Shown here: positions 1,024-7,647 of the stretch, in pieces
How positions within the stretch are numbered: the first letter of the stretch is position 1
Layout: each line of letters opens with the position of its first letter
Assembly: GCF_053078305.1 (NCBI RefSeq)
Contig: NZ_CP166879.1
DNA length: 64,000 bases
Reading direction: 5' to 3' (one strand)
Position numbers and translations under genes: made by a program
The notes under the pieces: model-generated
Told to the model about the DNA's origin: nothing
The model's input: the letters and a program-made list of their open reading frames with translations, nothing else
Databases searched by the model: none

Positions 1024-2514
1024 TCATGAACGGCTGTTTTTGTTCTGCTTATTGACATATAAACGCTCATCGGAAGCTTTATACGCATCATGTAACGTAT
1101 CGTTTTCTTTCATCGCGTAAATACCGGAAGAGAAGCCGATCTCTTTCTGCGGCGCGATATGTTGCAGACGTTTTTCGATACGTTCAGGCAGTTGTGATGC
1201 AATTTGCGGCGTCGAATCGACAAGAATGATGCAGAATTCATCGCCACCGAGTCGGATGGCATAATCACTTTTACGAATCGATTGTTTAATCGCCTGAGCT
1301 AACAACGTAATCGCTAAATCCCCTTCCTGATGACCGAGGGTGTCATTTATTAGCTTTAACTTGTCCATGTCAATTGCAATAAACATCACCGAAGAACCGG
1401 ATTGCACCAGTTTCTGCAACCGCTGCTCCAGTTCAGGGGTTAAAATTTTGCGATTATACAGTCCAGTCATCGCATCACTAATATTTTCTCGCGACACATT
1501 TTGGTATAAGCGGAAGTGCATCCGCACCATATTCAGCAAAATTAACGCCGTCAAAATCCAGAACAGAACGCTTTTCCACGAAGACGTGATAAAGTAAAGA
1601 ATATCAATGGATAACGAGACACGAATGCCGCCCGGTAAGTCATGGACGTAACTGACATACTGGAACAGATTATCTTCGCTCTGGTTGATGATAATGTCGC
1701 GCCCCGAATCTGTATCGGTTAGCGTGACATTGAGAAAACGCCAGAGGAGAGGGCGGTCATGAGTGTAAAAGATATTCCGCAGATTGTTTTTGTTAATATC
1801 CAGCAGCACAATCCCTTTTAGCTGCCCTGCAACATACACCGGCGTCAGCAAACTCATCACGTTCTGTTTAGTACGCTGATCCTGGTAAATGCTCGACAAT
1901 ACGGTACGCCCGGTAAATACCTTTTCAATATCTTTGCGATCGATGCCAATACTTCCTGACTGCAGGAAGGACCAGTTATTCATCGCAAAGTATTCAACAT
2001 TAACCGGCTCATAAAAATAGACATAGCGGTCATTGAGATCGAGATAATAGTGAAATTTCTCTTCGGCCATCCCAAGACCTGAACCGTAATCATCCTGGTG
2101 GCGGTTGCCTTCCACTGCCTGATCAAAAGCGGGTAATAGTGCTGCAGCTTCCACAATTGTGTCGCAGTCAGTGGATGCGGTTTGTAGTGTGCCGCGTAAG
2201 CCCGGGTATTTATGGGCAGTCAGGTTTAAGCCATGGGTATTATTGGCAGACTCAAAAGCCTCGCAGATGGCGCGCCGCTGTTCTGGCGACACTTCCGACT
2301 GCTCAGCAGCGAGAGCGCGCATCACATGCGCGGCAATACTCTGATTCTGATACTTATCATAAAGAAAGGAGGAGTCTGCTTTCTGCACGATATAGCGCAG
2401 ATAGGCACTCATTGCTCTGTCGCTGGCGACAAGTTCAAAAATAAGGAAGGAAGATGTCAGCACAATGACACTTGCGGCGATAAAATGCCGGAGCATTCTA
2501 TGGTGCAATTTCAT
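1024..2514 (-). CDS. dgcJ: Diguanylate cyclase DgcJ (496 aa) with canonical GGDEF motif
   Basis: The track ORF (1024..2694) contains RLGGDEF near its C-terminus. Start chosen at the internal ATG (MKLHHRMLRHF...) at 2514, giving the 496 aa remembered for YeaJ. Confidence 0.9.
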   Translation of the reverse strand: MKLHHRMLRHFIAASVIVLTSSFLIFELVASDRAMSAYLRYIVQKADSSFLYDKYQNQSIAAHVMRALAAEQSEVSPEQRRAICEAFESANNTHGLNLTAHKYPGLRGTLQTASTDCDTIVEAAALLPAFDQAVEGNRHQDDYGSGLGMAEEKFHYYLDLNDRYVYFYEPVNVEYFAMNNWSFLQSGSIGIDRKDIEKVFTGRTVLSSIYQDQRTKQNVMSLLTPVYVAGQLKGIVLLDINKNNLRNIFYTHDRPLLWRFLNVTLTDTDSGRDIIINQSEDNLFQYVSYVHDLPGGIRVSLSIDILYFITSSWKSVLFWILTALILLNMVRMHFRLYQNVSRENISDAMTGLYNRKILTPELEQRLQKLVQSGSSVMFIAIDMDKLKLINDTLGHQEGDLAITLLAQAIKQSIRKSDYAIRLGGDEFCIILVDSTPQIASQLPERIEKRLQHIAPQKEIGFSSGIYAMKENDTLHDAYKASDERLYVNKQNKNSRS

Positions 2515-2694
2515 GATAAATGGCACTCCTTCGGTTAGTGAAACGAGAAAACCAGATAAAGTTCGATTGCGGCCTGGCACAGGGGCGCTAATTATACTCA
2601 TCTCTGCGCCGCTGGGGAGGGGAAATTTAGGGGTAATAGTAATAAATTGTATGCAAAAGCCACGCAAAAAGCATGGCTCTGAATATTTTTGCAC

Positions 2695-4170
2695 TTAAAT
2701 ATGATGAATAATCACTTTGTTGCCCCCCTCGCTTTTCGCTTCGCGTAAGGCTTTATCTGCTTCCGTCATGACAAGCGAGATATTACGCGTGTCACCCGTT
2801 GAAAAAACCGTGCCAATACTGATGGTCATTTGTTCAGGAACATCATATCTGTTACTAAAGCCGGTCAGGAGTTCGACATTTTTACGCATACGTTCCGCAA
2901 TGATTTTTGCCTGGGCACTATTGAGTTCGGTAAATAGCAAGCCAAACACCTCACCCTCCAGTCGCGCTAAAATATCATCGGGGCGGATGCTTTGCTGGAT
3001 AATATCGACAATTGAAACCAGCACTTTATCACCCACACGATGTCCCCATTGGGCATTGATGCGTTTGAACTGATTAATATCAACCAGCATGACACAGAAG
3101 TCCTTAACAACAGGTCGCGACAATAATGACTCTACGCTGTTGAAAAAGTAGCGCCGATTGTAAATATTGGTCAGCACATCATGAACTGCCAGTTTGCTGG
3201 AGAGTTGCAGCTCCTGAAAAATGTTATAAATCAGAAAAGACACAACAAACAGTTTACTGGAGACTTCAATCCCGCGACTGATATACCAGATGGTATAATT
3301 ATACTCATCCAGAGTCAGTAGAAGTAAGTTGCAGCATAGCGATGCCAGACATAATAATGCTATTAACGGCCATAGTTCGCTGGCTAATCGTGTACGCATG
3401 ATAATAAAGAACAGTAAAAATGCCCACAGACAAACCAATATTTTTGTATAGTTGATTCCCCAGGTCGCAGTATGGTTGTCCGGACAGTAATCGACGACAT
3501 ACAAAGAATAGTCAGCGTTATAACTGCTCAGATTGTGTGCCAGAAGGGGAAAAACTAAAAAAGGAATCAGCGCCAGCAACAGAATGCCAGTTTTTTTCTT
3601 ATTGTTGTCAAGGATGTTGTCTTTTCCATAACAAAAGAGCGCCAGCGAGGTTAAACAAATAAAACTGAGTTGGCGGAAAATATAGAAAATAGAAACATCA
3701 TTCGACTTTGTCTGGATCAGTGTACTGCCGTTAATTGGTTTATGGATAATTACAATGGTTTCAACTAAATAGATAAGGCCACTTAAAAATGCAAGGCTTA
3801 AAATGAGTGTTGGTAAAATTTGTTTGTTAGTGAAATATTTCATTAACATGAAAAGAAAAATGACGGCGTTAAGGAAAAACAAAGCCACAACAACCATCAG
3901 GTAATTCATCTGTGGGATGAGTTTTACATTTGTGTTTTCGTTATATAAGGTAGTAATGCAAAATAAAATTAACGTCAGCAATAAACTGAAAATAAAAAAG
4001 CTTTGAGCTTTTAATTTTTGTGTACCCATAGAAACCATAAAAAGGAGAGCAATGTGAGTGCTGGATTTTATTGATGGCAGAGATATATAGTTTTGACCAA
4101 GATCAATTTTCGTTAACGATAAAAAATATTTAAAGAATAACCCCAGGGAAATACGTGTTGACAGAATAAT
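2695..4170 (-). CDS. dgcI: GGDEF-domain protein DgcI/YeaI with degenerate active-site motif (EGEVF); membrane N-terminal domain
   Basis: The ATG-initiated ORF is 2695..4038 (447 aa) and carries RLEGEVF in place of GGDEF. The frame stays open upstream to 4284 with no in-frame ATG/GTG/TTG. The remembered 491-aa length would put the first codon at 4168-4170, which here reads ATT. The start coordinate is therefore uncertain; the stop at 2695 is firm. Confidence 0.8.
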   Translation of the reverse strand: MILSTRISLGLFFKYFLSLTKIDLGQNYISLPSIKSSTHIALLFMVSMGTQKLKAQSFFIFSLLLTLILFCITTLYNENTNVKLIPQMNYLMVVVALFFLNAVIFLFMLMKYFTNKQILPTLILSLAFLSGLIYLVETIVIIHKPINGSTLIQTKSNDVSIFYIFRQLSFICLTSLALFCYGKDNILDNNKKKTGILLLALIPFLVFPLLAHNLSSYNADYSLYVVDYCPDNHTATWGINYTKILVCLWAFLLFFIIMRTRLASELWPLIALLCLASLCCNLLLLTLDEYNYTIWYISRGIEVSSKLFVVSFLIYNIFQELQLSSKLAVHDVLTNIYNRRYFFNSVESLLSRPVVKDFCVMLVDINQFKRINAQWGHRVGDKVLVSIVDIIQQSIRPDDILARLEGEVFGLLFTELNSAQAKIIAERMRKNVELLTGFSNRYDVPEQMTISIGTVFSTGDTRNISLVMTEADKALREAKSEGGNKVIIHHI

Positions 4171-4316
4171 TTTTCCGAATGATTGTTTTCTGGAACTAAA
4201 TTGTGTAAAGGTTATGCTGTCATATTTAAAGCGATTGTAAGCTAATGTATGTAATAAATGAGATAATTTACAGTGAGCTAAAAATCAGCCAGGCGATAAT
4301 GACCCGGCTGATAGTT

Positions 4317-5612
<1,296 letters not shown>

Positions 5613-5712: not shown

Positions 5713-7647
5713 TTAAGACGATTTACGTACGCGCAAATACCATTCGCACAGTAAACGCACCTGTTTACGGGTGTAGCCTTTTTCCATCATACGGTCGACA
5801 AAGTCGTCGTGTTTCTTCTGCTCGTCGGTTGACGTTTTGGCGTTAAACGAGATAACCGGCAACAGCTCCTCGGTATTGGAGAACATTTTCTTCTCGATAA
5901 CCGTGCGCAGTTTTTCATAGCTGGTCCAGTTCGGATTGCGTCCGCTGTTATTGGCTCTGGCGCGCAGTACGAAGTTAACAATCTCGTTGCGGAAATCTTT
6001 TGGATTACTGATCCCCGCCGGTTTCTCGATTTTCTCCAGCTCGGCGTTAAGAGACTCGCGGTCAAACAGCTGCCCGGTATCCGGATCGCGATACTCCTGA
6101 TCCTGAATCCAGAAATCCGCGTAGGTAACATAACGGTCGAAAATGTTTTGCCCATATTCGGAATAGGATTCAAGGTAGGCCGTCTGGATCTCTTTGCCAA
6201 TAAACTCGGCATATTTCGGGATCAGATAACCTTTCAGGAACTCCAGATAGCGTTCTGCCTGCTCTTGTGGGAACTGCTCGCGCTCGATCTGCTGTTCCAG
6301 GACGTAGAACAGATGGACCGGGTTTGCCGCCACTTCTACATGATCGAAGTTGAACACGCGGGAGAGGATCTTAAACGCAAAACGCGTCGACAGACCGTTC
6401 ATCCCTTCATCGACACCGGCGTAGTCACGATATTCCTGATACGACTTGGCTTTGGGATCGGTGTCTTTCAGACTTTCGCCATCATAAACCCGCATCTTTG
6501 AATAAATGCTGGAGTTTTCTGGCTCTTTCAGGCGCGAAAGAATGGAAAAACGTGACAGTGTTTCGAGCGTGCCAGGGGCGCATGGGGCGTGAGTCAATTC
6601 ACTGTGATTAAGCAATTTCTCGTAGATTTTTATCTCTTCGGAAATGCGCAAGCAATACGGCACCTTCACGATGTAAACACGATCGAGGAAGGCTTCGTTG
6701 TTTTTGTTATTACGGAAAGTGACCCATTCGGACTCGTTCGAGTGGGCAAGAATAATCCCGTTGAACGGCAGGGCGGAGATACCTTCCGTCCCGTTGTAGT
6801 TACCTTCCTGAGTGGCGGTTAACAGCGGATGCAGCACTTTAATCGGTGCTTTAAACATCTCAACGAATTCCATGATCCCCTGGTTGGCGCGGCACAGTGC
6901 GCCGGAATAGCCATAGGCGTCTGGGTCATTCTGCGCGTAGTGTTCGAGTTTACGAATATCGACTTTCCCTACCAGCGCGGAGATGTCCTGGTTGTTCTCA
7001 TCACCGGGCTCTGTTTTGGCGATAGCAATTTGTTGCAGAATGGACGGCCAGACCTTCACTACCCGGAACTTAGTAATATCGCCACCAAATTCATGCAGAC
7101 GTTTTGCCGCCCACGGCGACATGATGGTGCCGAGATAGCGGCGAGGAATGCCATACTCTTTTTCCAGAATCTGCGCATCTTCCTGCGGATTGAAAAGACA
7201 GAACGGATGATCGTTGACCGGGCTACGCTCACCGTTGGCGCTCAATACATAAATCGGTACGAGCTGCATTAATGATTTCAGTCGCTCAGCAAGCGATGAT
7301 TTACCCCCACCCACAGGCCCCAGCAGATACAGGATTTGTTTCTTCTCTTCCAGCCCCTGAGCCGCGTGTTTCAGATAAGAGACAATCTGTTCAATCGCGT
7401 CTTCCATGCCGTAAAACTCTTCAAATGCCGGATAACGTGCAATGACCCGGTTAGAAAAGAGTCGAGAAAGTCTGGGTTCCTGGGCTGTATCGACCATGAC
7501 AGGCTCACCGATAGCCATCAATAGCCGCTCAGCCGCGTTGGCATAAGCACTGCGATCTTGCCGACAAGTGGTAAGAAACTCCTGCAGTGTGAACTCTTCG
7601 TCCTTGGCAGCTTCATATCGCTGGCGATAGTGATCGAATATATTCAT
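5713..7647 (-). CDS. yeaG: PrkA-family serine protein kinase YeaG (644 aa)
   Basis: 644-aa ORF with a Walker-A-like GPVGGGKSS motif; recognised as YeaG. Confidence 0.95.
   Translation of the reverse strand: MNIFDHYRQRYEAAKDEEFTLQEFLTTCRQDRSAYANAAERLLMAIGEPVMVDTAQEPRLSRLFSNRVIARYPAFEEFYGMEDAIEQIVSYLKHAAQGLEEKKQILYLLGPVGGGKSSLAERLKSLMQLVPIYVLSANGERSPVNDHPFCLFNPQEDAQILEKEYGIPRRYLGTIMSPWAAKRLHEFGGDITKFRVVKVWPSILQQIAIAKTEPGDENNQDISALVGKVDIRKLEHYAQNDPDAYGYSGALCRANQGIMEFVEMFKAPIKVLHPLLTATQEGNYNGTEGISALPFNGIILAHSNESEWVTFRNNKNNEAFLDRVYIVKVPYCLRISEEIKIYEKLLNHSELTHAPCAPGTLETLSRFSILSRLKEPENSSIYSKMRVYDGESLKDTDPKAKSYQEYRDYAGVDEGMNGLSTRFAFKILSRVFNFDHVEVAANPVHLFYVLEQQIEREQFPQEQAERYLEFLKGYLIPKYAEFIGKEIQTAYLESYSEYGQNIFDRYVTYADFWIQDQEYRDPDTGQLFDRESLNAELEKIEKPAGISNPKDFRNEIVNFVLRARANNSGRNPNWTSYEKLRTVIEKKMFSNTEELLPVISFNAKTSTDEQKKHDDFVDRMMEKGYTRKQVRLLCEWYLRVRKSS

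Follow-up and report, generated by a model that had tools for sequence, protein, structure and literature searches.

In Escherichia coli, infC and pcnB are initiated at AUU, a codon that initiates at a small fraction of the efficiency of AUG, and the AUU of infC is conserved and is itself a regulatory device acting through discrimination by IF3. In class II promoters of FNR, the centre of the FNR box lies about 41.5 bp before the transcription start, and activator-dependent promoters without a -35 box are expected to escape a consensus scan. Here we analysed cdgI (yeaI), a gene for a MASE4-GGDEF protein, in a stretch of 64,000 nucleotides from contig NZ_CP166879.1 (assembly GCF_053078305.1; the window), where the start codon annotated in strain K-12 reads ATT. 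The gene, its degenerate GGDEF motif, the binding of cyclic di-GMP (c-di-GMP) by its product and the occupancy of its FNR site are already known. Specifically, the purified GGDEF domain of CdgI binds c-di-GMP and contacts several other GGDEF domains (Sarenko 2017, PMC5635695), and CdgI, which has been reported as CsrA-repressed, is the only one of the degenerate stand-alone GGDEF proteins of E. coli for which the conditions of expression are described as still unknown (PMC5635695). The published work uses a model of 491 amino acids (aa) or the cytoplasmic domain only and does not address the start (Sarenko 2017, PMC5635695; Spurbeck 2012, PMC3484386).

We add to this the history of the ATT allele, the observation that the 44 annotated N-terminal codons (the extension) behave as non-coding DNA, and a phylogenetic footprint which would recast the 'intragenic' FNR site as part of a class II promoter preceding a shorter gene. 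Our reading, to which we assign a probability of roughly 0.8, is that CdgI is a short protein, that the extension is regulatory DNA and that ATT is neutral. Translation would begin at a pair of ATG codons at 4038 and 4029, giving a protein of 447 or 444 aa, and the 44 codons above this pair would be the control region of cdgI rather than protein. The single-nucleotide polymorphism (SNP) to ATT would destroy an ATG that never was a functional start, and the annotation pipeline, by carrying the K-12 491-aa model to the ATT genomes, would produce an apparently AUU-initiated gene. This reading draws on the observed distribution of the alleles, the unconstrained extension, the N-termini of the orthologues and the conservation of the FNR box, the -10 box and the ATG.

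The annotated start and the 44-codon extension of cdgI

The window carries the same gene as K-12; the two copies are 99% identical in nucleotides, and both lie in the order yeaG-yeaH-yeaI-yeaJ-yeaK. An initial annotation of the window, made from the sequence alone, had noticed ATT at codon 1 of the 491-aa model. K-12 has ATG at this position, and strain A30 and O157:H7 strain Z570 share the ATT. The window lineage additionally has CTG for CAG at the supposed codon 3 and CTG for ATG at the supposed codon 9. We counted haplotypes with exact-match probes, three 35-mers across the first codons, in 5426 complete E. coli genomes; the K-12 type (ATG ATT CAG) is present in 3,273 genomes, the B2 type (ATG ATT CGG) in 1,785 and the window type (ATT ATT CTG) in 319. 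Codon 1 is ATG in about 94% of the genomes (at least 5058/5426), and the ATT haplotype accounts for about 6% of sequenced E. coli (319/5,426), almost entirely O157:H7 and its relatives. Among species-level outgroups, ATG is found in MOD1-EC7003, E1V33 and E69, and TTG in E. whittamii. Since ATG prevails in most E. coli and in the cryptic-clade outgroups, ATT is the derived allele, and a check for conservation among close relatives, as seen for the AUU of infC, found ATT in the 319 genomes only. The initial annotation had considered that the start codon was mutated in this strain; this holds for the loss of an otherwise prevalent ATG, but the lost ATG was probably not a functional start. ATT is probably a neutral G-to-T SNP of the O157:H7-related lineage, located in DNA upstream of the gene.

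RefSeq lists a 491-aa protein starting from ATT in A30, in O157:H7 Z570 and in all ten sampled ATT genomes without a frameshift, while in O157:H7 PV15-279 a 1-bp deletion in a T6 run breaks the extension and the annotation flips to 447 aa from the 4038 ATG. The apparent AUU start is probably an artefact of the K-12 491-aa model transferred by homology. A reference annotation of 447 aa, which the initial annotation had named as a refutation, exists in E. albertii, in the cryptic clades and in one O157:H7 genome with a frameshifted extension, but K-12 CdgI in RefSeq still has 491 aa.

Several side observations concern the same stretch. The RefSeq annotation of yeaI/cdgI is inconsistent: the protein has 491 aa when started from ATT, but 447 aa and an ATG start where a frameshift interrupts the extension (NZ_CP062771.1, NZ_CP028745.1, NZ_AP018488.1), and it is named either 'sensor domain-containing diguanylate cyclase' or 'GGDEF domain-containing protein', despite the missing catalytic motif. 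The T5 variant of the T6 run occurs in nine complete genomes of unrelated strains, including two O157:H7, and may be either a true polymorphism or an error in sequencing the homopolymer; most of these genomes have no RefSeq coding sequence (CDS) over the stretch and no pseudogene, and PV15-279, the sole one checked, has the 447-aa protein. An inverted repeat at codon 1 in K-12 (AATCAT...ATGATT) was dropped as a candidate element, being not conserved in orthologues.

To compare the extension with the rest of the gene, variability by codon position was determined across thirteen Escherichia sequences. In the core, from M45 (the 4038 ATG in 491-aa numbering) to the stop codon, the fractions of variable sites at positions 1, 2 and 3 are 0.18, 0.10 and 0.57, with position 3 far above position 1 and position 1 above position 2. 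The corresponding values in the extension are 0.39, 0.36 and 0.48, with neither codon periodicity nor an excess at position 3, and the fraction over all sites of the intergenic spacer is 0.34. Positions 1 and 2 of the extension differ in variability from those of the core (P = 3.5e-7), while the extension is indistinguishable from the intergenic spacer. By the Nei-Gojobori method, the ratio of non-synonymous to synonymous rates (dN/dS) is 0.3-1.6 for the extension, compared with 0.03-0.10 for the core. Comparison of the window with K-12 gave 0 synonymous and 3 non-synonymous differences plus the start change for the extension, and 8 synonymous and 0 non-synonymous differences for the core. Protein-coding constraint directly after codon 1, as would be expected of an infC-type gene, was not found; dN/dS is about 1 there and frameshifts are tolerated. 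Specifically, an extra T in a T-run puts the upstream ATG of E69 out of frame, and SCPM-O-B-8794 is without an upstream start, having only 13 open codons and M45 out of frame. Both genomes keep an intact 444-codon core, and the core open reading frame (ORF) is likewise unbroken in the window and in each of the 13 genomes compared.

The initial annotation had stressed that the frame is open for 82 codons above the 4038 ATG, up to 4284, without ATG, GTG or TTG, and the ORF and frame check confirms this. However, 38 of the 82 codons lie upstream of codon 1 and run without a start into the tail of the yeaH terminator, and for this reason the open frame alone is no evidence of coding. K-12-type genomes carry a TAA 11 codons upstream of their ATG. 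Judged by its pattern of substitution, the extension is probably not protein-coding.

The N-termini of the homologues were compared as well. Orthologues outside E. coli proper are all 445-448 aa long, namely those of E. albertii, the clade proteins of 87-89% identity and the proteins of 77%, 64%, 62% and 57% identity; the orthologues checked for context are syntenic, lying between yeaH and yeaJ. MASE4-GGDEF paralogues have 443-448 aa, and orthologues and paralogues all align from M45/M48, with the extension absent. Four distant orthologues have an in-frame stop 10-22 codons upstream of the start and no alternative start between. Among the Escherichia examined, M45 is GTG in E. albertii and ATG in all others, and it is absent in the 62% orthologue. 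The initial annotation had taken 4038 as the first ATG, in agreement with the 447-aa ORF (2695..4038), but had missed the second, invariant ATG three codons on (4029-4027). Scoring of Shine-Dalgarno matches and local folding at five candidate starts gave weak values throughout and did not discriminate between them; the Shine-Dalgarno scores are -3.5 kcal/mol for codon 1, -2.2 for M48 and +2.2 for M45, against a random mean of -2.45. At codon 1 the match is a 3-nt GGA only, 4 nt upstream, barely above the random background.

It is likely that the conserved CdgI is a 444/447-aa MASE4-GGDEF protein starting at 4029 or 4038, and which of these ATGs serves as the start we can only infer. The 447-aa form, among the options raised at the outset, is the best supported. 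Contrary to its initial description, however, it lacks no part of the N-terminal membrane domain: MASE4 is complete in the short form, hydropathy analysis found no transmembrane-grade segment in residues 1-44, with all such peaks at residue 52 or later, and the homologues start likewise.

An FNR box and a predicted -10 box before the ATG pair

Eleven orthologous upstream regions were aligned for the footprint, which contains three invariant islands, TTGATC....TCAA, CAATA(A/G)AAT and the ATG at 4029, and elsewhere conservation collapses. The first island is an FNR box, TTGATCTTGGTCAA in the window and TTGATCCTGGTCAA in K-12. Its half-sites are invariant in the eleven regions, the window box matches 9 of the 10 half-site positions of the consensus TTGAT-N4-ATCAA, and in two orthologues the box is a perfect palindrome. 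The second island holds the predicted -10 hexamer. The two are separated by 22 nt throughout (21 in E. albertii) although the spacer sequence diverges, and this spacing places the centre of the FNR box (4099.5) at -41.5 from a predicted start near 4058. The two elements would form a class II FNR-activated promoter, and its mRNA, starting near 4058, would begin about 20-30 nt before the ATGs, with a leader of 20 nt to M45 and 29 nt to M48 and with codon 1 excluded. A consensus promoter scan did not report this FNR-type promoter.

In K-12 the site is bound in vivo. The sequence TTGATCCTGGTCAA, catalogued as 'Within yeaI' with a PatSer score of 15.15, lies at an FNR ChIP-seq (chromatin immunoprecipitation with sequencing) peak (Myers 2013, PMC3688515, Tables S5, S6) and at a ChIP-chip peak as well (Tables S5-S7), and does not overlap with nucleoid-associated proteins (PMC3688515). 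Nearly all sites labelled 'within' a gene in that table are unoccupied (PMC3688515). TTGATCCTGGTCAA has a single occurrence in the K-12 locus, falling on codons 22-26 of the annotated CDS, and the occupied site looks intragenic only through the annotated start. We infer that cdgI may be activated by FNR. As for the wider proposal, that cdgI is misannotated across E. coli, that a class II FNR promoter lies inside the annotated CDS and that oxygen limitation is the expression condition, we consider the odds about even. Oxygen limitation would possibly act in concert with the lifting of repression by H-NS or CsrA, or with a contribution of AppY or SrsR.

The FNR allele of the window differs from that of K-12 by a C-to-T change in the non-contacted spacer only. 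This variant is found in about 1,020-1,060 of the 5,426 genomes, in several lineages, and reads as a Pro-to-Leu polymorphism in the 491-aa model. The SNP, at 4100, turns the K-12 Dcm site CCTGG, which overlaps a GATC Dam site, into CTTGG in the window (4097-4101, minus strand), and it hits the methylated inner C of the Dcm site; this suggests an old polymorphism or recurrent deamination. A 'promoter island' reported for yeaI (PMC3661553) was considered as evidence on the extension and not used, its recalculated coordinates starting near M45, inside the core.

The CdgI protein and the surrounding features

The window is E. coli DNA. A 1.8-kb region from it has matches of 95-100% identity in 5,424 of the 5,426 complete genomes, with strain A30 and O157:H7 strains as the top matches, and the minus-strand order yeaG-yeaH-yeaI/cdgI-yeaJ/dgcJ-yeaK is the same as in the RefSeq annotation of K-12, A30 and O157:H7 Z570. 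The features are collected in Table 1.

Table 1 Features at the cdgI locus, in window coordinates; residues in 491-aa numbering.
Feature	Position	Strand	Basis or remark
dgcJ (yeaJ), GAPES1-GGDEF protein, canonical RLGGDEF	1024..2514	-	NF040885 equivalog model, 745.8 bits
cdgI (yeaI) CDS as supported here, including stop codon	2695..4038	-	447 aa, or 444 aa from 4029
GGDEF domain	2716..3189	-	residues 328-485; PF00990, E = 9e-45
MASE4 integral-membrane sensor domain	3214..3909	-	residues 88-319; PF17158, E = 1.2e-48, model 5-237 of 239
ATG 'M48', 444-aa form	4027..4029	-	only start codon invariant and in frame in every orthologue
ATG 'M45', first canonical ORF start, 447-aa form	4036..4038	-	ORF call
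44-codon 'N-terminal extension' of the 491-aa annotation, read as probable regulatory non-coding DNA	4039..4170	-	substitution pattern, frame breaks, homologues
Predicted transcription start, FNR-type promoter	4058..4059	-	from box centre and -10 geometry, unmapped
Predicted -10 hexamer TAAAAT (TAGAAT in some orthologues)	4065..4070	-	22 nt after FNR box
FNR box TTGATCTTGGTCAA	4093..4106	-	K-12 TTGATCCTGGTCAA, differing in N4 spacer
T6 run	4126-4131		T5 variant in some genomes
ATT at the K-12 annotated ATG ('codon 1' of the 491-aa model), derived SNP	4168..4170	-	haplotype counts, outgroups
Conserved non-coding motif ATCATTCGGAAAAA, directly 5' of codon 1	4171..4184	-	orthologue upstream regions
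Candidate upstream sigma-70 promoter TTTACA-16-AACAAT, hypothetical	4182..4209	-	consensus scan; predicted start near 4175
Intrinsic terminator of yeaH, 11-bp stem then T-run	4284..4312	-	1 found vs 0.1 expected; conserved in alignments
yeaH	4317-5600	-	gene order as RefSeq
yeaG	5713-7647	-	gene order as RefSeq

CdgI has an N-terminal MASE4 domain followed by a GGDEF domain, and belongs by this architecture to the MASE4-GGDEF proteins. Its A-site reads RLEGEVF (EGEVF at 2958-2944), departing from the GG(D/E)EF of active cyclases, while that of YeaJ is RLGGDEF; both motifs, named in the initial annotation, were recovered in the translations. The I-site RxxD, which precedes the A-site by five residues, is intact as RPDD (residues 396-399; 2985-2974), and its R396 and D399 do not vary among 15 homologues; the invariant residues of MASE4 are conserved too. 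The A-site (residues 403-409, 2944-2964) has drifted among Escherichia orthologues, which carry EGEVF, EGEEF, DGEVF, EGDVF, EGNVF or EGKRF, and GGEEF is retained in Citrobacter-type orthologues of 57-62% identity. This retention, with the drift within Escherichia, places the loss of catalysis within the Escherichia lineage, after which the motif was free to vary. With its catalytic motif lost and its RxxD kept, CdgI would be a c-di-GMP binder or a partner of other GGDEF proteins rather than a cyclase. The prediction from EGEVF of an inactive cyclase or c-di-GMP binder was right, and had already been published (PMC5635695).

Upstream of codon 1, the open frame of yeaI begins in the tail of the yeaH terminator. 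The motif ATCATTCGGAAAAA is found unchanged in the two syntenic orthologues with 77% and 62% protein identity, where its distance to the FNR box is constant at 63-64 nt, and it is absent in E. albertii and in the 64% orthologue; it may serve as an upstream promoter or transcription start site (TSS), or be bound by a transcription factor or CsrA. Inside the MASE4-coding part of yeaI (3270-3330) there is a sigma-70 ChIP peak 'within yeaI' with a 26-fold anaerobic rise (Myers 2013 Table S2), and the AppY ChIP summit for cdgI (PMC10057817) also maps to this interval after coordinate conversion. The only consensus promoter match there is antisense, on the plus strand at 3278-3305 (CTGATA-16-TATACT). 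On the other side of cdgI, the dgcJ frame is open upstream of its annotated ATG (2514) up to the yeaI stop codon (2515-2694, minus strand), and its mechanical ORF comprises 556 aa from GTG, compared with 496 aa annotated.

Alternative readings and comparison with known systems

Several points weigh against a short CdgI driven by the FNR-type promoter. The 82-codon open frame is unlikely to have arisen by chance: in this 30%-GC sequence, a stop-free run of that length has P ~0.004 in mononucleotide shuffles, and the other two frames contain 5 and 6 stops. ATG or TTG at codon 1, together with the open frame, persists in E. coli, MOD1, E1V33 and E. whittamii, and codon 1 has the least bad Shine-Dalgarno match among the candidate starts. 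In glucose minimal medium, yeaI shows no FNR-dependent change in expression and its TSS is given as 'Unknown' (PMC3688515 Table S9), and CdgI is undetectable in K-12 under standard conditions (PMC5635695). A literature search for TSS, ribosome-profiling (Ribo-RET and Onc112 included) or N-terminal proteomic data on cdgI found none; specifically, neither yeaI nor b1785 is listed in the TSS data of Kim 2012, and yeaI is absent from TRAINSPOTTER. Furthermore, K-12 has a sigma-70 ChIP-seq peak some 144 bp upstream of the FNR box, with an occupancy that doubles anaerobically (PMC3688515 Table S2). Because of this peak and the promoter-like site at 4209-4182, an upstream promoter is possible, with transcripts that include codon 1 and hence an added 491-aa isoform in ATG strains. 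The promoter-like site would start transcription 4-6 nt before codon 1, and an SrsR box, GCATAACCTTT, has been mapped beside it (PMC9181523); as a sigma-70 match it is not significant alone, with 1 found against 2.2 expected in shuffles.

In one alternative, the 491-aa protein is genuine in ATG strains, and the ATG-to-ATT change in the O157-related lineage abolished it, with fallback to M45/M48 and a shortened functional protein. It would account for the persistence of codon 1 in frame with the extension, for the low chance probability of the open frame, for the weak GGA Shine-Dalgarno-like element 4 nt upstream of codon 1 and for the possible upstream promoter. We nevertheless regard it as unlikely, since the extension evolves neutrally, with dN/dS near 1 and no periodicity, frameshifts in it are tolerated next to an intact core, and it is absent in every orthologue and paralogue, while it harbours a conserved -10 box and a site that FNR occupies in vivo. 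Nor is there any sign that a long isoform, should one exist, matters; most of the probability left beside the short-protein reading goes to a long isoform that is real in ATG strains but dispensable, and that has been lost here.

Genuine AUU initiation, raised in the initial annotation as a rare start, is far less probable. The ATT at 4170 or the adjacent ATT at 4167 would then direct low-level synthesis of the 491-aa protein, as in infC and pcnB, and the RefSeq annotation of A30, O157:H7 Z570 and all ten sampled unframeshifted ATT genomes agrees with this, as does the same weak GGA element in front of ATT. However, ATT is a recent, derived and unconserved SNP confined to about 6% of genomes, the 44 codons behind it are free of coding constraint, the Shine-Dalgarno match barely exceeds the random background, and the annotation was inherited by homology and turns into 447 aa once the extension is frameshifted. 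AUU also works with a small fraction of the efficiency of AUG. Least probable of all is that cdgI is decaying in the ATT lineage, with start loss as the first step towards a pseudogene of a catalytically dead GGDEF protein: the A-site is degenerate and drifting among orthologues and K-12 gave no detectable CdgI in the laboratory (PMC5635695), but neither the window nor any of the 13 genomes compared has a broken core ORF, purifying selection on the core is strong (dN/dS 0.03-0.10; 8 synonymous and 0 non-synonymous differences between window and K-12), the I-site and the MASE4 invariant residues are conserved, and 5411 of 5426 genomes keep a near full-length copy.

The reading of CdgI as a 444/447-aa protein has practical consequences. 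CdgI models beginning at ATT are found in hundreds of RefSeq genomes, and 491-aa models, the first 44 residues of which are probably never made, in thousands; constructs, tags, deletions and structure models based on the 491-aa model would treat a promoter as protein. The label 'intragenic' given to the yeaI FNR site may have hidden a conventional promoter architecture, and the conserved, ChIP-verified FNR box at class II spacing offers a concrete and cheaply testable hypothesis on the expression of CdgI. The finding amounts to a start-site correction and a regulatory lead, and not to a new kind of system.

How does cdgI compare with the described systems? Like infC and pcnB, cdgI in this lineage has ATT as the first codon of a RefSeq-annotated CDS; unlike that of infC, its ATT is a recent SNP found in 6% of genomes, no coding constraint is seen in the 44 codons behind it, and it is most likely not a start codon at all. 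Among class II FNR promoters, of which narG, ydhY and yfgF/pdeF appear in the Myers 2013 list, cdgI differs in that its TSS is predicted only, that no FNR-dependent change was seen in the one condition examined and that its site is catalogued as intragenic. It resembles them in its PatSer score of 15.15, which falls within the range of known sites, and in its ChIP-occupied box with a predicted -10 box exactly 22 nt downstream, kept in orthologues. The K-12 protein has the same EGEVF A-site and intact RxxD I-site as that of the window, from which its lineage is set apart by ATG for ATT at the annotated start. DgcT (YcdT) and DgcX share the architecture of CdgI at a total length of 443-452 aa, their N-termini align with M45/M48 of CdgI, and they have one transmembrane helix before MASE4, as CdgI does (PMC10459773). 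In contrast to CdgI with its EGEVF, however, DgcT and DgcX keep GGEEF and are active cyclases.

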